This document shows, in pieces, positions 11,598 through 42,667 of a DNA stretch of 64,000 nt; position 1 is the stretch's first letter, and each line of letters begins with the position of its first letter. A model generated the notes under the pieces. The model made no database searches and had not been told where the DNA came from. It saw only the letters and a program-made list of their open reading frames with translations. Where the stretch lies: assembly GCF_003018255.1 (NCBI RefSeq), contig NZ_CP027440.1. One strand, written 5' to 3'. The DNA comes from Escherichia coli (lineage in GTDB: Bacteria; Pseudomonadota; Gammaproteobacteria; Enterobacterales; Enterobacteriaceae). The position numbers and the translations under genes were made by a program.

Positions 11598-13748
11598 TTA
11601 GTGGTGCGAAGAGATCTTCACGCCGCCTTCCGGGATTGGAACGTACGGAGTTTCTTTGTCAGTACGTTTGTCGCTGTTACGCACCGCAAGCCAGGTTTTG
11701 AAACCGTAGAAGATGATGCTGTACACCACAATCAGGAACAGAATACTCAGACCCGCGTTAGTGTAGTTGTTCACAACGATGTGGTTCATGTTGGCAATCT
11801 GCTGTGCCGTCAGGTCAGTACCGTTAGCAATCTTCTCTTTGTACTGGCTTGCCATGTAGAAGAAGCCTTCCATCTGCGGGTTGGTGCTGAACAGTTTCAG
11901 GCCCAGCGCCCAGGTGGTGCAGATAAGCAGCCATACAGCCGGAACAACAGTTACCCAGATGTATTGGGTGCGCTTCATCTTAATCAGCACAACGGTGCCC
12001 AGTACCAGTGCTACGGCTGCCAGCATCTGGTTGGAAATACCGAACAGCGGCCACAGGCTCTTAACGCCGCCCAGCGGATCGACCACGCCCTGATACAGCA
12101 GGTAGCCCCACAGACCCACACAGCCCGCAGTACCGATGATACCAGCAACCAGAGAGTCGGTTTTTTTCAGGAACGGGATGAAGTTACCCAGCAGGTCTTG
12201 CAGCATAAAGCGGCCAGAACGGGTACCCGCATCCAGCGCGGTCAGGATGAACAGGGCTTCGAACAGAATACCGAAGTGATACCAGAAGCCCATGTCAGCC
12301 ATCGGCAGCACTTTGTGGAACACGTGCGCGATACCTACCGCCAGCGTCGGCGCACCACCTGCACGGTTCAGGACAGAAGGTTCACCAATGTCTTTCGCGG
12401 TTTGCAGGATCTGCTCTGGCGAAATCACGAAGCCCCAGGAGCTGACGGTCGCCGCCGCGTGTGCGGTAACGTCTTTCAACTGCGCCATGATGATCGGCGC
12501 GTTCTCGCCACCCATTTCATGCAGGTTAGGCATGGTGATGCCAAGGCCAGCAGGCGGGGTGTTCATCGCGAAGTAAAGACCCGGTTCGATGATGGACGCA
12601 GCAACCAGCGCCATAATCGCCACGAAGGACTCCATCAGCATTGCGCCGTAGCCAATGAAACGCGCGTCGGTTTCGTTAGCCAGCAGTTTCGGCGTCGTAC
12701 CGGAAGAGATCAGCGCGTGGAAGCCAGATACCGCACCACAGGCGATGGTGATGAACAGGAACGGGAACAGAGCGCCTTTCCACAGCGGGCCAGTACCGTC
12801 AATGTACTGGGTCATCGCAGGCATTTTCAGTTCCGGGTTCAGCACCACGATACCCAGCGCCAGGCCGACGATAACGCCGATTTTCAGGAAGGTTGCCAGA
12901 TAGTCGCGTGGTGCGAGGATCAGCCACACCGGCAGCAGCGCGGAAACAAACGCATAGCCAATCAGCGCGAAGGTAATGGTGGTGTCTTTAAAGGTCAGTG
13001 CCGGACCCCAGTACGGATCGTGAGCAATCACGCCACCGAAGTAGATAGAGGCAACCAGCAGCACGATACCAATGACAGAGACTTCACCCACACGCCCCGG
13101 ACGAATAAAGCGCATGTAGATACCCATAAACAGCGCAATCGGTACGGTTGAGCAAACGGTGAAGACACCCCACGGACTTTCGGCCAGGGCTTTAACCACA
13201 ATCAGCGCCAGGACGGCGAGGATGATGATCATGATTAAGAAACAGCCAAACAGCGCGATAGTCCCCGGTACTGGCCCCATCTCTTCTTTGATCATCTCAC
13301 CAAGAGATGCGCCATTACGGCGAGAGGAGATAAACAGCACCATAAAGTCCTGAACCGCACCGGCCAGCACGACCCCCGCCAGCAGCCACAGCGTGCCAGG
13401 CAGGTAGCCCATCTGCGCGGCGAGAACCGGACCCACCAGCGGACCTGCACCGGCGATAGCGGCGAAGTGGTGACCAAACAACACGTAACGGTTGGTCGGA
13501 ACGTAGTTCAGACCGTCGTTGTTAATAACCGCAGGCGTCGCGCGCGTGGGGTCGAGTTTCATCACCTTCTGGGCGATGTACAGACTGTAGTAGCGATAAG
13601 CCACCAGATACACCGACACAGAGGCGACCACGATCCACAGGGCGCTGACGTGCTCCCCCCGACGTAATGCAACTACCGCGAGGCAGAATGCACCGATGAT
13701 TCCGAGAATCACCCAGGGTATGTGCTTGAATATCTTTTTAGTATCCAT
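11598..13748 (-). CDS. btsT: CstA-family pyruvate/H+ symporter BtsT (YjiY), 716 aa
   Basis: MDTKKIFKHIPWVILGIIGAF... from ATG at 13746-13748; polytopic CstA-like protein. Confidence 0.9.
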   Translation of the reverse strand: MDTKKIFKHIPWVILGIIGAFCLAVVALRRGEHVSALWIVVASVSVYLVAYRYYSLYIAQKVMKLDPTRATPAVINNDGLNYVPTNRYVLFGHHFAAIAGAGPLVGPVLAAQMGYLPGTLWLLAGVVLAGAVQDFMVLFISSRRNGASLGEMIKEEMGPVPGTIALFGCFLIMIIILAVLALIVVKALAESPWGVFTVCSTVPIALFMGIYMRFIRPGRVGEVSVIGIVLLVASIYFGGVIAHDPYWGPALTFKDTTITFALIGYAFVSALLPVWLILAPRDYLATFLKIGVIVGLALGIVVLNPELKMPAMTQYIDGTGPLWKGALFPFLFITIACGAVSGFHALISSGTTPKLLANETDARFIGYGAMLMESFVAIMALVAASIIEPGLYFAMNTPPAGLGITMPNLHEMGGENAPIIMAQLKDVTAHAAATVSSWGFVISPEQILQTAKDIGEPSVLNRAGGAPTLAVGIAHVFHKVLPMADMGFWYHFGILFEALFILTALDAGTRSGRFMLQDLLGNFIPFLKKTDSLVAGIIGTAGCVGLWGYLLYQGVVDPLGGVKSLWPLFGISNQMLAAVALVLGTVVLIKMKRTQYIWVTVVPAVWLLICTTWALGLKLFSTNPQMEGFFYMASQYKEKIANGTDLTAQQIANMNHIVVNNYTNAGLSILFLIVVYSIIFYGFKTWLAVRNSDKRTDKETPYVPIPEGGVKISSHH

Positions 13749-13976
13749 AGTAAAACCTGGCATGTATTGATTAATAGTTGGCCGAAGCCGTTCTAGGTTT
13801 GCGTTGCGTTTGAGGAGGTAAATTGACCGCTATCCTGCAGTGATGTTGCCAGAGTTACGCGCGCGTAAAGTAAGGTAAATAACTGAGTGGTTATTTTAGG
13901 GACGTAAGCGGTCAGGAATGGCGGTGAGCGGTTGGGCAAGAATTATTCGTCGGGTGGATATGTGATTGAGATCACA

Positions 13977-14011
13977 ATAAAAATGCCCCTTCGATAATTA
14001 ACCGAAGGGGC
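13977..14011 (-). terminator. Rho-independent terminator after the D-serine-dehydratase-like gene
   Basis: 9-bp GC-rich stem GCCCCTTCG/CGAAGGGGC with 9-nt loop immediately after the stop at 14016, followed on the minus strand by a U-run (plus-strand A-run 13977-13983). Confidence 0.5.
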
Positions 14012-14015
14012 GTTC

Positions 14016-15236
14016 TTAGAAGAGAGTGTCTAATTCTGCCAGTACGTTGTAGTCGTCATCAGTCAATAACAACGTTTTCCATTTGTCGAAGGTCAGGCAC
14101 GGATGCGATGTGCCAAACACCAGAATATCCCCCACTTGCACGTCGCTATTAGCTGACAGTTGCAACATGCAGTGCTGATCCATAATACCTGTACTGCGAA
14201 TCGCCTGTGGATCAAATGCCAGTGATTTGCCGTTGCGGTAGTGGGCGACTGGTTGCGGCAGTCCGGCGTCGAAGGCGCAATCACGCTTACCAAAATTTAC
14301 CACCGCACGATCAGCTTCCGGCACCGATTGCACCATGGCGACCAGTTCCAGCGCAGATGTGAGATCGCCTGCCAGATCGCAGGCCACAGGATCACGGGCA
14401 AGCAACTGTTGTTGTGCCGCGTCGTAGATCCCGGTGTCGTGAGTGATGTAGCAGCCAGGGCGAATAACAATGCGGCAGTTATCAGGCTTTTCTGCCGCCA
14501 GCCAGATATTGCACACCACGTCATACCAGACCGTGCCTGCTCCGGTGAGAATAAACTCGCCATCAACCAGACTTGCCATATCACAGGCCAGTTGTGCGGC
14601 ATCCCGCAGCAGAGCTTCTACCTGCGGTTGTGGATCGTCACCGTGTAAAACGCCTTCATATAACTCAAGCCCCCGCAGGCGTAACCCCGGTAATTGGGCT
14701 GCCTGTTTAGCCAGTGTCAGTGCGGCATCCCTTGAGCGGCAACCACAGCGCCCGCCGGGGACACCCAACTCAATCATCACGTTCAGTGTCTGTTGCTGAC
14801 TGGCAAAAAAGGCAGACAAAGCGCGGGCGTTCTCAATGCTGTCGATACAGCAGATAAAATCGACCGTCGGGTAATGTCGTTGCAACTGGGCAATCAACTG
14901 CATATTCGCCTTGCCGACCAGCTGGTTAACCATCAGCACTCGCTGAATACCGCTCGCCATTGCCGCACCAGCCTGCCATGCGCTACCGACACCTATTGCC
15001 CAGGCGCCTGCCGCCTGCTGCGCCTGAAAAATCCACGGCGTCATGGTGGTTTTACCGTGCGGTGCCAGCGAAACGCCGCGCGCGTCAGCATAACGCTGCA
15101 TCCACGTAATGTTGTTCTCCAGGGCCTGCTTTTTAATGATCGCGGCAGGTAAACAGACATCTTCGGCAAGGAGATTTGCGGGCATTTGCATCAGGGCAGA
15201 TTTATGGGGAACCAGAGGTTCTGAGTGGTATTTCAT
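14016..15236 (-). CDS. PLP-dependent D-serine dehydratase-like enzyme (DSD1 / alanine-racemase-fold; D-Ser/D-Thr dehydratase or aldolase family), 406 aa
   Basis: N-terminal alanine-racemase-like domain with HGKT lysine motif (APHGKTTM), matching the HxKT signature of DSD1-type enzymes; accessory gene between btsT and tsr. Confidence 0.75.
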   Translation of the reverse strand: MKYHSEPLVPHKSALMQMPANLLAEDVCLPAAIIKKQALENNITWMQRYADARGVSLAPHGKTTMTPWIFQAQQAAGAWAIGVGSAWQAGAAMASGIQRVLMVNQLVGKANMQLIAQLQRHYPTVDFICCIDSIENARALSAFFASQQQTLNVMIELGVPGGRCGCRSRDAALTLAKQAAQLPGLRLRGLELYEGVLHGDDPQPQVEALLRDAAQLACDMASLVDGEFILTGAGTVWYDVVCNIWLAAEKPDNCRIVIRPGCYITHDTGIYDAAQQQLLARDPVACDLAGDLTSALELVAMVQSVPEADRAVVNFGKRDCAFDAGLPQPVAHYRNGKSLAFDPQAIRSTGIMDQHCMLQLSANSDVQVGDILVFGTSHPCLTFDKWKTLLLTDDDYNVLAELDTLF

Positions 15237-15436
15237 AACATTTACCTTTTAAGTTTTTCACCGTATCGGATGTGAGTATCACTTGTAACTAAATGAAATA
15301 TAAATATTTAGTTTATTTATCTTATTATTTATGAATAAAAGTATCATAAAATCATCTGGGTTTTGCGTAGTTTTCCACTGTTTTTCGTCCTTGTAAATGG
15401 TTAACTTGTCACCATTGCAGAAATGGAGTGACGAAC

Positions 15437-16879
15437 ATGCAGGTTGACTGGTTAATCAAAAATGTGACCGTTATCGACGGTAGCGGCGGCCCTGAATTTC
15501 GCGGTGACGTGGCAATAACAGGTGATCGGATTGTCGATATTGCCCCTGCGCTTAACGTTACGGCGCAGCAGGTCATTGACGGGGAAGGGCGGGTGCTGGC
15601 ACCCGGGTTTATCGACGTTCATACCCATGACGATATCAACGTTATTCGCATCCCGGAATATCTGCCAAAGATCAGCCAGGGGATCACTACGGTGATTGTC
15701 GGTAACTGCGGGATTAGTGCGGCGTCGGCGAAAATGAAAGGTGAAGTTCCTGACCCGATGAATCTGTTGGGGGAAGCAGAGCACTTTATTTATCCTACCG
15801 TTGAAAGCTATGCCCAGGCAGTGGAAGCAGCCAGGCCGTCACTGAACGTTGGCACGCTGATTGGTCATACGGCGCTGCGTAATAACCATATGGACGACCT
15901 GTTTCGCCCGGCGACGGTGGATGAAATTGCCGCTATGCGTGCCGACTTACGTCTGGCGTTGAGTCAGGGGGCGCTGGGGTTAAGTTCCGGGCTGGCCTAT
16001 GCAACGGCATTTCAGGCGACTACCGAAGAAGTCATGGCGCTGGCGGAAGAATTAGCCGGTGAGAAGGGCGTTTATACCACCCATCTGCGTTCTGAATTTG
16101 AACCGATTCTCGATGCCCTGGATGAGGCGTTTCGTATTGGGCGTCATGGCAAAGTGCCTGTCGTGGTTTCCCACCATAAATGTGCCGGGGCGAAAAACTG
16201 GGGGCGGACAAAAGAAACGTTGGCCTTTTTTGACCAAATGCGTCAACACCAGGAAATTGGCTGCGATGTCTACCCTTACTCAGCCAGCTCTTCAACGCTG
16301 GATCTCAAACAAGTCACCGACGAATTCGATATTGTGATCACCTGGTCACAAACACATCCGCAGCAGGCCGGGAAAACACTGGCGCAAATCGCCATCGACT
16401 GGCAGATGAGTATGCTGGAGGCCGCGAAGCTGCTAATGCCTGCCGGGGCTATCTATTACAACATGGACGAGCGCGACGTCCGCCGAGTGTTGAGTTATCC
16501 GGTCAGTATGATTGGCTCTGACGGCCTGCCCAATGATCCCATGCCGCATCCACGTTTATGGGGCGCCTTCCCTCGCGTGCTGGGCCACTATTGCCGTGAT
16601 GAAGGCTTATTCCCACTGACCACGGCTATCCACAAAATGACCGGGCTTTCTGCCAGCCGTTTTCGCCTGCCCCAGCGTGGACTGGTGAAAGTCGGTTATT
16701 TTGCGGACCTGGTGTTGTTCGATCCACAAACCATTCGTGATGTTGCCAGCTTTTCTGATCCCAAACGCCCGGCAGATGGCATTGAGGCGGTGATGGTGAA
16801 CGGCGTTATGAGCTATGGTCCCGATAAACATATTACAGGCCGTGCGGGACGCTTCCTGCGCCGGCAGACCTCACATTAA
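15437..16879 (+). CDS. N-acyl-D-amino-acid deacylase (D-aminoacylase) family amidohydrolase
   Basis: MQVDWLIKNVTVIDGSGGPEFRGDVAITGDRIVDIA...APGFIDVHTHDD (metal-binding HxH); ATG at 15437 with GGAG upstream (the ORF track starts at a GTG at 15428). Confidence 0.8.
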   Translation: MQVDWLIKNVTVIDGSGGPEFRGDVAITGDRIVDIAPALNVTAQQVIDGEGRVLAPGFIDVHTHDDINVIRIPEYLPKISQGITTVIVGNCGISAASAKMKGEVPDPMNLLGEAEHFIYPTVESYAQAVEAARPSLNVGTLIGHTALRNNHMDDLFRPATVDEIAAMRADLRLALSQGALGLSSGLAYATAFQATTEEVMALAEELAGEKGVYTTHLRSEFEPILDALDEAFRIGRHGKVPVVVSHHKCAGAKNWGRTKETLAFFDQMRQHQEIGCDVYPYSASSSTLDLKQVTDEFDIVITWSQTHPQQAGKTLAQIAIDWQMSMLEAAKLLMPAGAIYYNMDERDVRRVLSYPVSMIGSDGLPNDPMPHPRLWGAFPRVLGHYCRDEGLFPLTTAIHKMTGLSASRFRLPQRGLVKVGYFADLVLFDPQTIRDVASFSDPKRPADGIEAVMVNGVMSYGPDKHITGRAGRFLRRQTSH

Positions 16880-16888
16880 GGAGTGAAT

Positions 16889-17278
16889 ATGAGCATTAAA
16901 CGTTACGGTACGGAAGGTGGAACAGGCACTGGCGGGCAGCATTTGCCTTTTGCCAGGGCGGTTGAGGCGGGCGGCTGGCTGTACGTCTCCGGGCAAACAC
17001 CCATGAAAAACGGTGAAGTGGTAGAAGGCGGAATCGTTGAACAGTCACGACTGGCGATCCAAAACTGTGTCGACATCATGACTGAAGCCGGTTATAGCCT
17101 GGCGGATGTGGTTCACGTGAAAGTGATCCTGACCGACGCCCGCTATTTCCAGTCATTTAATAAAGTATTCAGAGAATTTTTTGGCGAGAATCCGCCTGCA
17201 CGTATTTGTTGTGTGGCTGATCTGGTTGTCGATTGTAAAGTCGAAGTCGATGTGACCTGTTATAACGCGACCCGCTAA
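16889..17278 (+). CDS. RidA/YjgF-family reactive enamine/imine deaminase
   Basis: 129-aa YjgF-like protein; strong TAAGGAG Shine-Dalgarno 5 nt before ATG at 16889; begins 10 nt after the aminoacylase stop. Confidence 0.8.
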   Translation: MSIKRYGTEGGTGTGGQHLPFARAVEAGGWLYVSGQTPMKNGEVVEGGIVEQSRLAIQNCVDIMTEAGYSLADVVHVKVILTDARYFQSFNKVFREFFGENPPARICCVADLVVDCKVEVDVTCYNATR

Positions 17279-17380
17279 TAAATTTAAGAATTAAAAAAAC
17301 AGACCGCAATTGAGTGCTGAATACATTCAGCACTCCGGGAACTCTTACATTAATTTCTCTCTACTGGCAGGATGTGAATT

Positions 17381-18850
17381 ATGAACAGTCATATCTTTTT
17401 AGTCGGCTTTATTATTTATGCCATCGCCATGATTTGGCTTGGTTGGTTTGTTTCTCGTAATCAGAAAAGCGGAGAAGATTTTCTGCTGGGCGGGCGTTCG
17501 CTGCCGCTGTTTCTGACGCTGGGGTCAACCGTTGCCACGATGGTTGGCACGGGTTCCAGTATGGGGGCAGTGGGCTTTGGCTACAGCAATGGCTGGGCCG
17601 GAATGCTTTATGGCGTCGGTGGAGCCGTAGGTATATTGCTGGTGGCGTGGCTGTTTGCACCGGTACGTAAATTACGTTTTATGACCATGAGTGAAGAACT
17701 CTCTTATTATACTGGCGGTAGTCATTTAATTAAAAATATTGTCGGCCTGATGATATTTATTGCCTCTATTGGCTGGCTGGGGGCGCATATATTAGGTGGA
17801 AGTATGTATCTTGCCTGGGCGACGGGTATTGATCTTACTGTGGCAAAATTAATTATCGCCTTAGCTTTTGCGATTTATGTTATTATCGGCGGTTATTCGG
17901 CGGTAGTGTGGACAGATACTATTCAGGCCCTAATTCTGTTCTTTGGCTTTATATTAATGGCTATTCTTGCCGTTGTTCACGTTGGCGGCTGGAGTGCGAT
18001 TGAGCAGGCGATGGACCCAAAAGCGATGAGCCTGTTTGCGATTGATAAAATGGGCGTGCTGCCTGCGCTTTCGCTGGCACTGGTTATTGGCGTAGGTGTG
18101 CTGGCAACACCGTCTTATCGCCAGCGTATTTACTCGGGTAAAGATGTTCCCTCTGTACGCCGTTCGTTTGTTATTACTGGGGTGTTATATCTGTTCTTCT
18201 CGATTTTGCCTGCCATTATCGGCATGGCGGCGTTCACCATGAACCCAAATCTGGAAAACAGCAACTACGCCTTCTTGTTCGCGACCAGTTTCTTACCTGC
18301 CATTCTTGGGCTGGTGGTGCTGATTGCCGGGCTTTCAGCCACCATGTCTTCTGCCAGCTCCGATGCCATCGCGGCGGTGGCGATTATGATGCGCGACGTC
18401 TACACCATGATTACCGGCAGAATGCCGCCGGAGGACAAGGCCATTACTTACTCACGCTGGATGTTGACCTTTGTTATTGGCCTGGCGCTGGTCTTTGCTC
18501 TGACCTCTAATGACATCATCAGCTACATTACCAAAATGATTTCGATGCTGATGTCCGGGCTGTTTATCTGCTCGATTCTCGGTCGCTTCTGGCTACGCTT
18601 TAACTGGCAGGGCGCGCTGGCGGTGTTAGTGAGCGGTATGGTGATGTCAATTGTGGTGCTGATGAATGCCGACTGGCTGGCTTACTGGGGTAACCCGTGT
18701 ATTCCGTCAGTGCTGGGCAGCCTGGTCGCTGGCGTACTGGTGACGTTGGTAACGCCAGCAAGTCAGGTCAGCCGGGAAGAAGCTTTGGCGATTATCACCA
18801 ATGAGCGTGAAAACCAGAGTGTCGTGATCACCAAACCTGAAGAAGCATAA
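17381..18850 (+). CDS. Sodium:solute symporter (SSS) family transporter, 489 aa
   Basis: Polytopic protein with SSS-like motifs (FLLGGRSL, GGYSAVVWTDTIQA); preceded by AGGA. Confidence 0.8.
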   Translation: MNSHIFLVGFIIYAIAMIWLGWFVSRNQKSGEDFLLGGRSLPLFLTLGSTVATMVGTGSSMGAVGFGYSNGWAGMLYGVGGAVGILLVAWLFAPVRKLRFMTMSEELSYYTGGSHLIKNIVGLMIFIASIGWLGAHILGGSMYLAWATGIDLTVAKLIIALAFAIYVIIGGYSAVVWTDTIQALILFFGFILMAILAVVHVGGWSAIEQAMDPKAMSLFAIDKMGVLPALSLALVIGVGVLATPSYRQRIYSGKDVPSVRRSFVITGVLYLFFSILPAIIGMAAFTMNPNLENSNYAFLFATSFLPAILGLVVLIAGLSATMSSASSDAIAAVAIMMRDVYTMITGRMPPEDKAITYSRWMLTFVIGLALVFALTSNDIISYITKMISMLMSGLFICSILGRFWLRFNWQGALAVLVSGMVMSIVVLMNADWLAYWGNPCIPSVLGSLVAGVLVTLVTPASQVSREEALAIITNERENQSVVITKPEEA

Positions 18851-18859
18851 CCAACAATG

Positions 18860-19765
18860 CTAATCGCCAAGTGGCTGGCGGTTAGCGCCCCCACGGTGGC
18901 TGTCTAACACCAGTTTTATCCGCCGCAGGCGATCTTTCGCCTGCGCTTTATTTGCCATTGCCAGTTCTGTTGCCAGTACATCGACCATGGCTAACATCGC
19001 GTAGCGGGAAGGGGTGGGCTTAAAGATGTAATCACTTTCCTGAACCAGTAACGGCAATACCAGATCCACCTGTTCCGCCAGCGGTGTTTGTGCTGGTGTA
19101 ATGGCAATAACACGCGCGCCATACTGACGGGCGATTGCCGCACTTTCGATGATTTCCGGTGTATAACCGCCCAGCGACAGTACAATCACCACATCCTGCG
19201 GCATCACTGCCGAGCACATCATTCTCATCATCAGGGCATCATTCTGACTGACCACCGGTAGCCCCAGACGGAATAAACGGTACTGAATCTCCTGTGAACA
19301 GATGGTGGAACCGCCGCCAGTTCCCAATGCAAGAATTTGCCGCGCCTGACTTAACCAGCTTACAGCCTGGCTGATGGCATTCATATCCAGCGAACGACGA
19401 TGCGTTTCCAGCACGCTAATAATCGCTTCGTAGATCCCCTGAACACCGTCAAGATCCGGTACATCGAGAATAAACCGCTGCCCGACAGCCAGTGACTGCG
19501 CCAGTTTGACTTTCAACTCGCGGACATCTTTGCACCCCAGTGCACGGGCAAAACGCGTCACCGACGCCTGACTGGTTTGCGTTAACCGCGCCAGCTCAGC
19601 AATGGGCAGTTCCACCGCGGCGGGGACATCATCAAGAATAAATTGTGCGATACGCTTTTCAGTGGCGGTTAACGCCATAAACCGTTCGGTAATACAGGAG
19701 ATGATATCGATGCTATAAGCCATAGGAGTATCACTGGTTCGAAGAAGATTGATACTTTGTACCAT
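18860..19765 (-). CDS. RpiR/MurR-family transcriptional regulator (N-terminal HTH + SIS sugar-phosphate-binding domain)
   Basis: LTATEKRIAQFILDD HTH region followed by a SIS-like domain; start uncertain (candidate ATGs at 19765, 19723, 19678). Confidence 0.75.
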   Translation of the reverse strand: MVQSINLLRTSDTPMAYSIDIISCITERFMALTATEKRIAQFILDDVPAAVELPIAELARLTQTSQASVTRFARALGCKDVRELKVKLAQSLAVGQRFILDVPDLDGVQGIYEAIISVLETHRRSLDMNAISQAVSWLSQARQILALGTGGGSTICSQEIQYRLFRLGLPVVSQNDALMMRMMCSAVMPQDVVIVLSLGGYTPEIIESAAIARQYGARVIAITPAQTPLAEQVDLVLPLLVQESDYIFKPTPSRYAMLAMVDVLATELAMANKAQAKDRLRRIKLVLDSHRGGANRQPLGD

Positions 19766-19846
19766 AAACTGCCGCTATAGAGTGTGACCCTCACAAAAAA
19801 CGCAAGTTTGCTGCAACAAAAGCAGTGCCGACGCTTTTCCACAGCA

Positions 19847-19873
19847 TAAAGTTTTCCACCACCAGGCCGACAA
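19847..19873 (+). promoter_or_regulatory. Sigma-28 (FliA) class III flagellar/chemotaxis promoter of tsr
   Basis: TAAAGTTT-N11-GCCGACAA matches the FliA consensus TAAAGTTT-N11-GCCGATAA; about 30 nt upstream of the tsr ATG. Confidence 0.55.
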
Positions 19874-19904
19874 CCAGTGTATCTGTCTAGTGGAAAGAGA
19901 AACC

Positions 19905-21569
19905 ATGTTAAAACGTATCAAGATCGTGACCAGCTTACTGCTGGTTTTGGCCGTTTTTGGCCTTTTACAACTGACATCAGGCGGTCTGTTCTTTAATGCC
20001 TTAAAGAATGACAAAGAAAATTTCACTGTTTTACAAACCATTCGCCAGCAGCAATCCACGCTGAATGGCAGCTGGGTTGCGTTGTTGCAGACGCGTAACA
20101 CCCTCAACCGCGCGGGTATCCGCTACATGATGGATCAGAATAATATTGGTAGCGGTTCAACCGTTGCTGAGCTGATGCAGAGTGCCAGTATTTCGCTGAA
20201 ACAGGCGGAAAAAAACTGGGCGGATTACGAAGCGTTGCCGCGTGACCCGCGTCAGAGCACCGCCGCAGCGTCAGAGATCAAACGTAATTACGATATTTAT
20301 CACAATGCGCTGGCGGAGCTGATCCAACTGTTAGGTGCAGGCAAAATCAACGAGTTCTTTGATCAACCGACCCAGGGATATCAGGACGGTTTCGAGAAGC
20401 AGTATGTGGCTTACATGGAGCAAAACGATCGGCTCTATGATATCGCCGTCAGCGATAACAATGCCTCCTACAGCCAGGCGATGTGGATTCTGGTAGGCGT
20501 GATGATCGTCGTACTGGCGGTCATCCTCGCCGTCTGGTTCGGTATTAAAGCCTCGCTGGTCGCGCCAATGAATCGCCTGATTGACAGCATTCGTCATATT
20601 GCAGGCGGCGATCTGGTGAAACCGATTGAGGTGGATGGCTCTAATGAGATGGGGCAACTGGCAGAGAGTTTGCGCCATATGCAGGGAGAGCTGATGCGTA
20701 CCGTCGGTGATGTGCGCAACGGGGCCAATGCCATCTATAGCGGTGCCAGCGAAATCGCCACCGGCAATAACGATCTCTCTTCGCGCACCGAGCAACAGGC
20801 CGCTTCGCTGGAAGAGACGGCAGCCAGCATGGAGCAACTGACCGCAACGGTGAAGCAGAACGCCGAAAATGCGCGTCAGGCCAGCCACCTGGCGTTAAGT
20901 GCTTCCGAAACGGCGCAACGCGGCGGCAAAGTGGTGGATAACGTGGTGCAGACTATGCGCGATATCTCCACCAGTTCGCAGAAAATCGCCGATATTATCA
21001 GCGTAATTGACGGTATTGCCTTCCAGACCAATATTCTGGCTTTGAACGCGGCGGTTGAAGCAGCGCGCGCGGGTGAGCAAGGGCGCGGTTTTGCGGTGGT
21101 TGCGGGAGAAGTGCGTAATCTGGCCCAGCGTAGCGCTCAGGCTGCTCGTGAAATTAAAAGCCTGATTGAAGACTCGGTGGGGAAAGTGGATGTTGGCTCT
21201 ACGCTGGTCGAAAGCGCCGGGGAAACAATGGCGGAGATTGTCAGTGCCGTGACCCGCGTGACGGACATTATGGGCGAAATTGCTTCTGCTTCTGATGAGC
21301 AGAGCCGTGGTATCGATCAGGTTGGCTTAGCGGTTGCTGAGATGGACCGGGTAACCCAACAAAACGCCGCGCTGGTGGAAGAATCTGCCGCTGCCGCCGC
21401 CGCGCTGGAAGAGCAGGCCAGTCGCCTGACCGAAGCAGTGGCAGTGTTCCGGATTCAGCAACAGCAGCAACAGCAGCGTGAAACATCGGCTGTAGTAAAA
21501 ACCGTGACGCCAGCTACGCCGCGTAAAATGGCCGTGGCAGATAGCGGCGAGAATTGGGAAACGTTTTAA
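19905..21569 (+). CDS. tsr: Methyl-accepting chemotaxis protein I, serine chemoreceptor Tsr (551 aa)
   Basis: [27 protein letters not shown]... with HAMP, methylation helices and C-terminal NWETF pentapeptide. Confidence 0.95.
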
Positions 21570-21574
21570 TCGCC

Positions 21575-21612
21575 ATAAAAATGCCCGATAAGCAAAATGT
21601 TATCGGGCATAG
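21575..21612. terminator. Hairpin terminator between convergent tsr and lgoT
   Basis: Perfect 11-bp stem ATGCCCGATAA/TTATCGGGCAT with 8-nt loop; A-run on plus side (U-run for minus-strand lgoT). Confidence 0.55.
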
Positions 21613-21617
21613 GGAGT

Positions 21618-22979
21618 TTAATCTTTACGCGGGTCGTTGATCGGCTGACGAACCAGGAAGATGTACGCCAGTGCCCCCGCTGCGGTGACGCAACCGCAGA
21701 TGATTAGTGCCAGACGGAATGAGTGGGTGGTATCAACAATAAAACCAGTAATGATCGGCGCGAAAGAGGCGCAGATGAAGCTGGCAAAGTTCTGGATACT
21801 GCCCACCGACGCCGTCATGCGAGAAGCAACTGCGACGTGGATCAAGCCCCAGCAGGATGTTCCGGCAAAGTGAATACAAAACAGTGCCATGCCAATCAGC
21901 AGAACCGCTGTCATGGATGTTGTCGCTTGCGGTACGACCAGCGTAAAGGCGGCAGAACAGAACATCCCGGCAATAATGCAGATCTTACGGCTTTTAATCG
22001 GAGCCATTCCCCCTTTGACCAGCCAGTCGGTAACGTAACCGTTGACCAGCATCCCGGCAGCCCCAAACAGGAAAGGGATAGCCGCCATCAACCCTGTGCT
22101 TTTTAAATCCAGGTTATAGGCTGTTTGCAGGTAACCAGGAAGCCAGGCCAGATACAGCCACGCAGTGTAGTTGATGCCACTGAATCCGATCATCATTCCC
22201 CACATTGTGCGGTTACGGAACAGGCTGCGCCATTCGGCAAAACTGAGCGGATCTCGGCGGGCATTGACGCTACCAGCATTGAGGTAAGCTTGTTCAACGG
22301 CAGTCAGTTCTACGTGCTCGCGGTTGCGATAGAGCATATACCAGCCAATGGCGAGAAAAATCCCCAGCACACCAATGGTAATAAACATCCCACGCCAGCC
22401 CATCACCAGCATCATCGCCGCCAGAATCGGTGGGCTTACGGCAACGCCAATAGTAGAAGCTGCGTTGAAGAAGCCCATCGGGCGTCCGCGCTCTTTGATG
22501 TTGAACCAGTCGTTAATGACTTTTACACCGCATGGGTTCATCGGCGCTTCACCAATCCCCATACCGATACGCACCAACACGAACTGCGTAAAGCTGTGCA
22601 CCATGCCAGACATGGCCTGGAACAGTGACCAGAAGAACATCCCCAGTCCCAGCATCAGGCGTGGGCCTTTACGATCCAATAGTGGGCCGCAAGGAAGTTG
22701 CGCAATCCCGTAAGCGAGTGAAAACACGGAGAGCAAAGCGCCGATTTCGGTAGCACTTAATCCCAATTCTTCACGAATCGTTAAATTTGCAACCGACAGC
22801 GAACTGCGGTCGAGATAATTGATTACCGCCGCAAAAAATAATAACAACATGGCGGTGGTTTGAATGCGTTTAATTCGGGTACTGCGTTGAACTAATCCAT
22901 CTGGTGGCACGGGAATATCTGCCGACGAAGATGGAGTAAATGAAGAACGCGGATCGAGGGTGATATTTTCTTTTTCCAC
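21618..22979 (-). CDS. lgoT: MFS transporter, L-galactonate:H+ symporter LgoT (YjiZ)
   Basis: 453-aa MFS protein; GTG start at 22977-22979 preceded by AGGAG. Confidence 0.9.
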   Translation of the reverse strand: MEKENITLDPRSSFTPSSSADIPVPPDGLVQRSTRIKRIQTTAMLLLFFAAVINYLDRSSLSVANLTIREELGLSATEIGALLSVFSLAYGIAQLPCGPLLDRKGPRLMLGLGMFFWSLFQAMSGMVHSFTQFVLVRIGMGIGEAPMNPCGVKVINDWFNIKERGRPMGFFNAASTIGVAVSPPILAAMMLVMGWRGMFITIGVLGIFLAIGWYMLYRNREHVELTAVEQAYLNAGSVNARRDPLSFAEWRSLFRNRTMWGMMIGFSGINYTAWLYLAWLPGYLQTAYNLDLKSTGLMAAIPFLFGAAGMLVNGYVTDWLVKGGMAPIKSRKICIIAGMFCSAAFTLVVPQATTSMTAVLLIGMALFCIHFAGTSCWGLIHVAVASRMTASVGSIQNFASFICASFAPIITGFIVDTTHSFRLALIICGCVTAAGALAYIFLVRQPINDPRKD

Positions 22980-23193
22980 GCCGGACTCCTGTATTTATAA
23001 TTTTAATTGTTTACGTAATTGTGCATTACGCAAGGTTGACATTAACGGCAGGTTAAAGTTTTAGGACTTTACTACCGCTCACAAAAACATTTTTAGTCGA
23101 CTGATTGTGAGCATAGGTAAGCGGGAATTTCCCGGTATTTATCTTTTGATAAAACCGTGCACCCGCTAATAGTTTGCTGTTTTTAATCCGTAC

Positions 23194-34335: not shown

Positions 34336-34422
34336 TGGTGCGAGGGGGGGGACTTGAACCCCCACGTCCGTAAGGACACTAACACCTGAAGCTAGCGCGT
34401 CTACCAATTCCGCCACCTTCGC
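34336..34422 (-). tRNA. leuV: tRNA-Leu (anticodon CAG), third gene of the leuQPV operon
   Basis: Reverse complement reads GCGAAGGTGGCGGAATTGGTAGACGCGCTAGCTTCAGGTGTTAGTGTCCTTACGGACGTGGGGGTTCAAGTCCCCCCCCTCGCACCA (87 nt, encoded CCA). Confidence 0.95.
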
Positions 34423-34456
34423 ACAGTCATCTTACTTTTTTTGATATTGCCTCGTT

Positions 34457-34543
34457 TGGTGCGAGGGGGGGGACTTGAACCCCCACGTCCGTAAGAACAC
34501 TAACACCTGAAGCTAGCGCGTCTACCAATTCCGCCACCTTCGC
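34457..34543 (-). tRNA. leuP: tRNA-Leu (anticodon CAG), middle copy; variable-arm C-to-T variant relative to the flanking copies
   Basis: Same 87-nt sequence except plus-strand A at 34496 (tRNA sense GTGTTCTTAC instead of GTGTCCTTAC). Confidence 0.95.
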
Positions 34544-34571
34544 CCAGTGCGAGCAATATCAACGTGGTTTT

Positions 34572-34658
34572 TGGTGCGAGGGGGGGGACTTGAACCCCCA
34601 CGTCCGTAAGGACACTAACACCTGAAGCTAGCGCGTCTACCAATTCCGCCACCTTCGC
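34572..34658 (-). tRNA. leuQ: tRNA-Leu (anticodon CAG), promoter-proximal copy
   Basis: Identical 87-nt tRNA-Leu sequence. Confidence 0.95.
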
Positions 34659-41674: not shown

Positions 41675-42450
41675 TTTGCCGTTTTATCGACACCCACTGC
41701 CATTTTGATTTCCCGCCTTTTAGTGGTGATGAAGAGGCCAGCCTGCAACGCGCGGCACAAGCGGGCGTAGGCAAGATCATTGTTCCGGCGACAGAGGCGG
41801 AAAATTTTGCCCGCGTGCAGGCGTTAGCGGAAAAATATCAACCGCTGTATGCCGCATTGGGCTTGCATCCTGGTATGTTGAAAAAACATAGCGATGTGTC
41901 TCTTGATCAGCTACAGCAGGCGCTGGAAAGGCGTCCGGCGAAGGTGGTGGCGGTGGGGGAGATCGGTCTGGATCTCTTCGGCGACGATCCGCAATTTGAG
42001 AGGCAGCAGTGGTTACTCGACGAACAACTGAAACTGGCGAAACGCTACGATCTGCCGGTGATCCTGCATTCACGGCGCACACACGACAAACTGGCGATGC
42101 ATCTTAAACGCCACGATTTGCCACGCACTGGCGTGGTTCACGGTTTTTCCGGCAGCCTGCAACAGGCCGAAAGGTTTGTACTGCTGGGCTACAAAATCGG
42201 CGTAGGCGGTACTATCACCTATCCACGCGCCAGTAAAACCCGCGATGTCATCGCAAAATTACCGCTGGCATCGTTGTTGCTGGAAACCGACGCGCCGGAT
42301 ATGCCGCTCAACGGCTTTCAGGGGCAGCCTAACCGCCCGGAACAGGCTGCGCGGGTGTTTGACGTACTTTGCGAGTTACGCCCGGAACCAGAAGATGAGA
42401 TTGCCGAAGTGTTGCTAAATAATACGTATACGTTGTTTAACGTGCCGTAG
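41671..42450 (+). CDS. yjjV: TatD-family metal-dependent hydrolase/DNase YjjV
   Basis: (M)ICRFIDTHCHFDFPPF... TatD motifs; TTG start overlapping the yjjU stop. Confidence 0.85.
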   Translation: MICRFIDTHCHFDFPPFSGDEEASLQRAAQAGVGKIIVPATEAENFARVQALAEKYQPLYAALGLHPGMLKKHSDVSLDQLQQALERRPAKVVAVGEIGLDLFGDDPQFERQQWLLDEQLKLAKRYDLPVILHSRRTHDKLAMHLKRHDLPRTGVVHGFSGSLQQAERFVLLGYKIGVGGTITYPRASKTRDVIAKLPLASLLLETDAPDMPLNGFQGQPNRPEQAARVFDVLCELRPEPEDEIAEVLLNNTYTLFNVP

Positions 42451-42667
42451 GCCGGATAAGGCGTTCACGCCGCATCCGGCAGTTGGCGCACAATGCCTGA
42501 TGCGACGCTTGACGCGTCTTATCATGCCTACAAGTCTGTGCCGAACCGTAGGCCGGATAAGGCGTTCACGCCGCATCCGGCAGCTGGCGCACAATGCCTG
42601 ATGCGACGCTTGACGCATCTTATCATGCCTACAGGTCTGTGCCGATCCGTAGGCCGTATCCGGCATG
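42447..42667. repeat. BIME-type tandem array: two ~100-bp units (each carrying two REP palindromes) plus a partial third unit
   Basis: Units 42447-42547 and 42548-42645 are near-identical (GTAGGCCGGATAAGGCGTTCACGCCGCATCCGGCAG...TGCCTGATGCGACGCTTGACGC...) followed by GTAGGCCGTATCCGGCATG. Confidence 0.65.

Follow-up and report, generated by a model that had tools for sequence, protein, structure and literature searches.

A C-terminal tether that carries a pentapeptide is a textbook feature of the high-abundance chemoreceptors Tsr and Tar, and polymorphic tandem repeats in coding sequence are familiar as well. In Tsr, the C-terminal arm bears the pentapeptide NWETF, at which the adaptation enzymes CheR and CheB dock (PMC7390727, PMC8609364). 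The conserved part of the kinase-control domain ends with residue 517, after which the K-12 protein has a non-conserved C-terminus of 34 residues (PMC4692393, from the Parkinson laboratory). A study of tethered CheR counted the Tsr tether from I517 (PMC10561060). The glutamine tract analysed here lies in this same protein segment, from residue 517 to NWETF, of the Tsr and Tar tethers described by the Hazelbauer, Parkinson and Krell laboratories (PMC8609364, PMC4692393, PMC7390727, PMC10561060). However, the published Tsr linker is that of the K-12 allele, with four glutamines (Q4) and 30 residues counted from I517, while about 76% of complete Escherichia coli genomes encode a linker that is three residues longer and some encode one that is longer by six or nine. 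In the literature we found no description of a within-species length polymorphism of Tsr or of a repeat series in tsr, no mention of K-12 as carrier of a short minority allele and no listing of the tract as an MLVA locus.

Several kinds of described repeat loci resemble the tract, among them the coding VNTRs, or minisatellite-like repeats, of the MLVA type. Like these, the tract consists of perfect head-to-tail copies, its copy number is polymorphic among strains, strains differ by whole units and change has been recurrent, the latter as read from a single-locus tree in a recombining species. Yet with one to four copies of a short unit, the tsr repeat is probably far more stable than the loci used for typing. 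The phase-variable contingency loci of Neisseria, Haemophilus and Campylobacter share with it the repeat-mediated recurrent change within an environment-facing gene. In tsr, however, a unit length divisible by three keeps the reading frame intact, and the copies are few; the in-frame unit and the low copy number rule out a contingency locus, and an on/off switch is lacking. Eukaryotic polyglutamine (CAG) tracts are also encoded by CAG and CAA, polymorphic in length and interrupted by CAA. In contrast to them, the tsr tract is tiny (4–13 glutamines), changes by 9-bp blocks instead of CAG triplets, contains no hairpin-forming run of pure CAG and gives no sign of runaway expansion. As a triplet-slippage tract it was ruled out, with no Q6 or Q8 allele found in about 5,340 complete genomes and no 3-bp steps in 120 metagenome contigs.

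The tsr tract is a real and ordinary small coding repeat polymorphism. The reading that we favour, and consider likely, is that of an in-frame 9-bp repeat (n = 1–4) which has been changed recurrently by whole units and is probably nearly neutral in its effect.

The tsr gene and its glutamine tract

The tract was studied within a window of 64,000 nucleotides of E. coli DNA, the whole stretch that was analysed. The open reading frame that holds it has its real start at MLKRIK (Table 1). The NCBIfam equivalog model for Tsr (PRK15041) scored the 554-residue product at 1224 bits against a cut-off of 947 and covered residues 1–554 of 554, which places the protein within Tsr, and the models for Tar, Tcp and Tap all remained below their own cut-offs on the same product. 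Alignment with K-12 Tsr (PDB 6s1k, 551 residues) ran from end to end with a handful of substitutions and a sole gap of three glutamines, located in the glutamine tract. The ligand-binding domain matched PDB entries 3atp and 2d4u. The Tsr domain set was present, with PF02203 (TarH sensor), PF00672 (HAMP) and PF00015 (MCP signalling) taken from precomputed Pfam entries for proteins 99–100% identical to the window protein, and with the C-terminal NWETF read in the sequence. Furthermore, the 321 bases around the tract are 100% identical to those of E. coli strain 2017.09.02CC, in which the open reading frame (1665 nt) is annotated as tsr and has a gene for a MurR/RpiR-family regulator and lgoT as neighbours. 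Judged by these sequence comparisons, the gene is tsr, as the preliminary description had named it, and its product is clearly Tsr.

Table 1. Positions in the window of tsr, its glutamine tract and adjacent features.
Feature	Position	Strand	Basis
tsr CDS (serine chemoreceptor, 554 aa + stop)	19905–21569	+	ORF, NCBIfam PRK15041, K-12 alignment
I517 codon, last conserved residue of kinase-control domain, tether anchor point	21453–21455	+	from CDS start; PMC10561060
C-terminal linker/tether, residues 518–549 (32 aa in window allele)	21456–21551	+	non-conserved among orthologues; AlphaFold2
Glutamine tract Q518–Q524, (CAGCAACAG)2 + CAG	21456–21476	+	sequence, Tandem Repeats Finder, shuffles
9-bp unit, copy 1 (CAGCAACAG)	21456–21464	+	Tandem Repeats Finder; alleles differ by whole copies
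9-bp unit, copy 2 (CAGCAACAG), missing from K-12-type Q4 alleles	21465–21473	+	comparison with Q4, Q10 and Q13 alleles
Partial third copy (CAG), closes array	21474–21476	+	Tandem Repeats Finder and allele comparison
NWETF pentapeptide	21552–21566	+	sequence; function PMC7390727, PMC8609364
Terminator-like hairpin, 11-bp stem, between convergent tsr and lgoT	21581–21610	.	consensus match only

The preliminary description had reported a (CAG/CAA)7 run that encodes seven glutamines, and this was borne out: the 21 bases of the tract (CAGCAACAGCAGCAACAGCAG) read CAG CAA CAG CAG CAA CAG CAG and translate to QQQQQQQ, in the protein context given there. Its end coordinate, 21479, was set one codon too far and included CGT (Arg525, 21477–21479), which directly follows the tract; the length is thus 21 bases rather than 24. 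Tandem Repeats Finder described it with a period of 9 (CAGCAACAG, 2.4 copies, 100% matches, score 44) and also with a period of 3, at 78% matches and a score of 30; the 9-bp head-to-tail repeat is the better description. The tract exceeds chance expectation, since the window contains a single (CAR)7 match, whereas 100 dinucleotide-preserving shuffles yielded none. When all six frames were searched in stop-free stretches of at least 150 codons, Q7 was the longest single-amino-acid run in the window, and the only other run of five or more residues, A6, also lies in tsr.

On the opposite strand, neither Rfam (positions 19000–23000) nor the listing of open reading frames gave a sign of a second feature at the tract, and Rfam returned no family at all within 19000–23000 of the window. 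A minus-strand open reading frame of 72 residues (21268–21486) lies antisense inside tsr. The hairpin downstream of the gene was called on the minus strand, with a T run after the stem.

In the protein, the linker opens with the tract, which begins immediately after F515-R516-I517 and precedes NWETF by 25 residues. F515 is invariant in 53 aligned homologues, and the sequence beyond FRI is not conserved. That the tract belongs to the C-terminal tether ahead of NWETF, as had been proposed, was confirmed: it begins at residue 518 and thus falls into the non-conserved segment from 517 to NWETF (PMC4692393, PMC10561060). As expected of a pentapeptide tether, this segment lies between the last conserved signalling residue and xWxxF, and it is non-conserved in sequence and variable in length.

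It is conceivable, although somewhat less likely than not, that the glutamines prolong the last helix of the methylation bundle. Each unit would then displace the tether's anchor by about 0.45 nm and would not contribute three floppy residues. Support for such an extension comes from an AlphaFold2 model covering residues 260–554 (53-sequence alignment, mean pLDDT 85), in which the last helix runs through the whole tract to residue 530, and from the crystal structure of the Tsr cytoplasmic domain (1QU7), whose deposited chain reaches residue 520 and takes in the first two to three glutamines of the K-12 tract. However, the model represents a monomer, whereas Tsr is a dimer, and confidence over the tract is only moderate: pLDDT falls from about 78 to 67 over residues 518–530, and residues 531–549 remain below 50 and have no secondary structure. 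There is also no partner helix against which the tract could pack, and 8c5v, a model based on cryo-ET, stops at residue 516. According to the passages on Tar in PMC7390727 and PMC8609364, the equivalent Tar segment is unstructured by direct spectroscopy, but Tar has no glutamine tract.

Tract alleles and their history in Escherichia coli

All alleles that we read directly have the form (CAGCAACAG)n+CAG, with n = 1, 2, 3 or 4, and encode Q4, Q7, Q10 and Q13, respectively. A single unit was found in E110019, and K-12 has the same length (551 residues). Two units are present in the window and in strain 3PT (554 residues, but 543 in 3PT owing to a deletion), three in HS, A37 and LF82 (557 residues), and four in RM14723, A13 and Z1323HEC0355 (560 residues). 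In every allele read, the frame is intact through the tract and the C-terminus up to NWETF. The annotation of E110019 lists tsr as a pseudogene; its internal stop lies outside the tract region. The comparison of tract length among E. coli tsr alleles thus returned Q4, Q7, Q10 and Q13, in line with the variability that had been suspected, and invariance is refuted.

To estimate allele frequencies, 5,426 complete E. coli genomes were searched by BLAST. Each synthetic query held one allele between fixed flanks (60 nt on the left and 27 nt on the right for Q13, Q1, Q8 and Q6). With the Q7 query, 4058 of the 5339 matching genomes reached at least 95% identity and therefore carry Q7, because a 9-nt gap caps identity at 91.9%. 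The Q13 query matched three genomes gap-free; another 64 showed a single 9-nt gap, corresponding to Q10. Against the Q1 query, at least 1137 complete genomes showed one 9-nt gap, corresponding to Q4, and none matched gap-free. Likewise, Q6 and Q8 had no gap-free match among about 5,340 genomes, and their best matches were Q7 alleles with a 3-nt gap. Neither length occurs on any of the common haplotypes. The genomes that failed to span the query numbered 1205 for Q8 and 68 for Q6, which points to about 1200 genomes with Q4 and about 65 with Q10 or Q13.

Overall, we estimate that the approximately 5,340 tsr-bearing complete genomes comprise about 4,060 with Q7 (76%), about 1,200 with Q4 (22%, including K-12), about 65–80 with Q10 (roughly 1.2–1.5%) and three with Q13, counts that stem from bands of BLAST identity and coverage rather than from genome-by-genome reading and that leave about 10–15 genomes unplaced. 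The RefSeq complete genomes are a biased sample, and Q4 is inflated in it by K-12 derivatives. Common SNPs near the tract are located at −19 and +18.

As an independent sample, metagenome contigs were scanned with any insert of 3–33 nt allowed between exact flanks. The 120 contigs carried inserts of 12 nt (Q4, 30 contigs), 21 nt (Q7, 86 contigs) and 30 nt (Q10, 4 contigs), and no other insert length in the allowed range occurred among them. For Q2, Q3, Q5, Q9, Q11 and Q12, the search is that of these 120 contigs. The window carries the commonest allele (Q7, n = 2), and K-12 has n = 1. Between strains, tract length differs only by whole 9-bp units, not by single codons.

Salmonella enterica Tsr reads FRI-HQQQQ-RARE at this site. 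Its codons, CAC CAG CAA CAG CAG, represent the core of one E. coli unit plus CAG; this 3′ end was obtained via contigs encoding two fragments that were matched by the Salmonella Tsr sensor domain (PDB 8vl8). In other relatives the linker starts with QHDQQ (Citrobacter werkmanii), QQEQQ (Enterobacter cloacae) or LQAQQ (Superficieibacter). The ancestor likely possessed a short Q-rich linker start, and the first 9-bp duplication would have followed later, in the Escherichia lineage.

Parsimony required at least 11 changes of tract length on a neighbour-joining tree of 101 sequences, for which 693 nt of tsr flanks were aligned with MAFFT. When length labels were shuffled on this tree, 26.6 changes were needed on average and 22 at minimum. 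The 11 changes versus about 27 for shuffled labels therefore suggest that length is inherited within lineages, yet has repeatedly changed. The tree is that of a single locus in a recombining species, and recombination, not fresh slippage, may account for some of the apparent recurrences. One Q4 contig shares its flanks exactly with eight Q7 contigs; it originates from a low-coverage metagenome assembly, in which an assembly error is possible.

Individual alleles point in the same direction. With the tract removed, the Q10 allele of HS differs from those of A37 and LF82 at 25–35 of about 1644 aligned positions, but from a Q4 and a Q7 allele at only 19–20, and Q10 therefore appears to have arisen at least twice. 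The Q13 alleles show 0–14 differences from the A37-type Q10 allele and have the C-terminal tail in common with it; Q13 is thus a single added step on the A37-type background. Its three isolates, obtained from a dog, a sheep in Mexico and a human in South Korea, encode one protein accession, which argues for stability of the allele over epidemiological time.

Tract lengths were further read from match spans. Q4 was assigned in this way to K-12, Q7 to ATCC 8739 and Q10 to HS, all of which belong to phylogroup A. Among strains of phylogroup B2, ATCC 11775 and NU14 have Q4, ST131 and E2348/69 have Q7 and LF82 has Q10. The presence of Q4, Q7 and Q10 in both groups fits recurrent change, or recombination. 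Together, the flanking sequences indicate that the copy number has changed repeatedly and independently in E. coli.

Tether length and adaptation

Experiments on Tar with chains of 22, 29, 34 and 46 residues showed that the peak of tethered CheR moves by 0.128 ± 0.048 nm for every residue (PMC10561060); methylation sites lie 1.05 nm apart. The earlier claim that tether length affects the recruitment of CheR and CheB thus holds for the action of CheR in Tar; it was shown for that receptor, not for Tsr. If the Tar values are carried over, one unit of three residues would move the CheR peak by about 0.4 nm and the step from Q4 to Q13 by about 1.15 nm. Each unit gained or lost would lengthen or shorten the arm by three residues, and would be expected to alter, by a small amount, how far tethered CheR and CheB extend.

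Between FRI and NWETF, the linker measures 29 residues in Q4, 32 in Q7, 35 in Q10 and 38 in Q13. The 27 pentapeptide receptors among the matches listed, none of them from Escherichia or Salmonella, have linkers of 27–41 residues (23 enterobacterial receptors) or 61–70 residues (4 betaproteobacterial receptors), with unrelated sequences. Pectobacterium receptors have linkers of 29–39 residues (bioRxiv 10.1101/2024.03.07.583918). All four E. coli linker lengths sit inside the 27–41 range of the enterobacterial homologues. Because the predicted change in reach is small and falls within the lengths tolerated in related receptors, the natural Tsr alleles are probably close to neutral. A small quantitative effect of allele length appears possible, a large one unlikely.

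Alternatively, the number of units might be under selection as an adaptive tuning knob, with the reach of CheR and CheB over the methylation helices depending on tether length. The speed or precision of adaptation to serine and other Tsr signals would then differ usefully between lineages with Q4, Q7, Q10 and Q13. Methylation kinetics in Tar do change measurably with tether length (PMC10561060), length changes in tsr have been repeated, and the majority of E. coli carries the expanded Q7 and not the one-unit state seen in Salmonella. In addition, Q13 persists as one identical protein in the canine, ovine and human isolates. Nevertheless, we regard tuning as unlikely. With only one to four copies the mutation rate should be low, unlike that of true contingency loci, and the predicted step of about 0.4 nm amounts to roughly one third of the methylation-site spacing. 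Every allele stays within the range of related receptors, lineage structure is strong (11 changes versus about 27 expected at random), and an informal look at the rows listed revealed no association with host or source. Were the number of units tuned after all, Tsr tethers of 30, 33, 36 and 39 residues would differ measurably in adaptation speed and precision, and the K-12 reference receptor behind quantitative models would be an atypical minority allele with a short tether.

Quantitative chemotaxis work relies on K-12 Tsr (30 residues from I517), a minority allele found in about 22% of complete genomes, and most E. coli have a Tsr tether of 33 residues, nearly the 34 of Tar. It has been argued that the Tsr linker is shorter than that of Tar because the methylation sites of Tsr are nearer to the anchor (PMC10561060). 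The K-12 allele underlies this argument, which would not apply to the common Q7 allele. The natural series of Q4, Q7, Q10 and Q13 offers ready-made in-frame tether lengths for the tethered-enzyme model in Tsr.

Mode of length change

Once an allele has at least two units, the 12-mer CAGCAACAGCAG occurs again 9 bases further on and so provides a perfect direct repeat of at least 12 bases. From the allele pattern we infer that replication slippage (slipped-strand mispairing) or unequal exchange over this short homology adds or removes one 9-bp unit at a time. In the one-unit allele (Q4), only a CAG microhomology of 3 nt would be left, and expansion of Q4 should therefore be rarer than contraction to it.

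Trinucleotide (CAG) slippage, by which single glutamine codons would be gained or lost, had been suggested in the preliminary description. The tract is indeed built solely of CAG and CAA codons, and the period-3 description by Tandem Repeats Finder exists (score 30, 78% matches). However, the unit that changes is the 9-bp CAGCAACAG, no Q1, Q6 or Q8 allele was found, and we consider slippage by single codons highly improbable. Q7 is carried by about 4,060 of the approximately 5,340 genomes, yet neither Q6 nor Q8 turned up in any of them, and the 120 metagenome contigs hold 12-, 21- and 30-nt inserts only. The longest pure CAG run comprises two codons, and the lack of 3-bp alleles may be explained by the CAA interruptions that hold it to this length. 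Nor is there hairpin potential in the DNA of the tract: the folding of either strand was no more favourable than that of shuffled sequence (z = +1.4 and +0.7), and hairpin instability of the eukaryotic CAG type is therefore not indicated.

An origin of the length differences in sequencing or assembly errors can practically be dismissed. Short repeats are prone to mis-assembly, and two odd metagenome variants lie within about 50–70 nt of a contig end, but the discrete alleles recur in metagenomes and, by the thousand, in independent complete genomes, and a sequencing read is much longer than the tract (12–39 nt). In addition, Q4 of K-12 is confirmed by the protein sequence behind solved structures, and three unrelated assemblies carry an identical Q13. 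The contigs of the two odd variants end 51–67 nt upstream of the tract. A Gln-to-His variant (CAT) was observed on Q4, Q7 and Q10 backgrounds.

Interrupted and shortened tsr genes

In E. coli 3PT, whose allele of the serine chemoreceptor gene tsr has seven glutamines (Q7) in the C-terminal tract of the receptor, 33 bp flanked by the direct repeat GCCGCGCTGG were lost with the frame kept, giving a product of 543 aa. Owing to this deletion, 3PT Tsr is without 11 residues of the C-terminal methylation helix, in the stretch that carries the methylation site E493. The loss of eleven residues from one helix of the bundle would probably cripple the receptor.

In E. coli E110019 (four glutamines, Q4), tsr carries the annotation of a pseudogene with an internal stop. 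The retrieved Salmonella enterica genomes (L202-L205, including serovar Typhi) carry the gene in two open reading frames, encoding an N-terminal part of 199 or 215 aa and a C-terminal part of 361 or 386 aa. With an internal stop in the one and split frames in the others, the serine receptor looks inactivated in E110019 and in these Salmonella lineages.

Sequence features noted (positions in the window; TRF, Tandem Repeats Finder)
Feature	Position	Strand	Details
Five-gene block between btsT and tsr	within ~12,300-19,765		amino acid deaminase, N-acyl-D-amino-acid deacylase, RidA, sodium:solute symporter, MurR/RpiR regulator
10-bp direct repeat GCCGCGCTGG	21366-21375 and 21399-21408		within tsr
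Gln-to-His variant site	21471-21473		tract codon 6 of 7; CAG-to-CAT in related alleles
Three tandem tRNA-Leu(CAG) genes	34336-34658	minus	TRF: 121-bp repeat, 2.7 copies
101-bp tandem repeat	42445-42656		TRF: 2.1 copies, 96% identity

Alleles and placement of tsr

The 3' allele of the window is rare. Only 10 of the 5,382 genomes matched it with at least 99% identity over 321 bases (21300-21620), and over the same interval most Q7 alleles were 96-97.5% identical to the window. Histidine variants of the glutamine tract were also observed: in metagenome contigs the penultimate codon was changed from CAG to CAT on Q7 (n=11), Q4 (n=1) and Q10 (n=1) backgrounds. The corresponding QQQQQHQ is present in several protein clusters as well, and QQQQQQH is the representative of a cluster of 210 sequences.

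Among strains, the flanks of tsr differ both upstream (~12,300-19,765) and downstream (21618-22979). The gene directly upstream is hpaR, the regulator of the homoprotocatechuate operon, in HS and 3PT; in E110019 and A37 it is btsT. Downstream, the neighbour was either lgoT or a TRAP transporter across the strains compared. In the search of E. coli genomes, 3 of the ~5,340 tsr matches lay on plasmid-labelled records, and one genome held tsr in two places.

Other repeats in the window

Two further repeats lie outside tsr. The tRNA-Leu(CAG) trio is one that we take to be a leuQPV-type cluster. The 101-bp unit includes GCCGGATAAGGCG... and CGCATCCGGC..., which are similar to intergenic repeats of the REP/BIME type.
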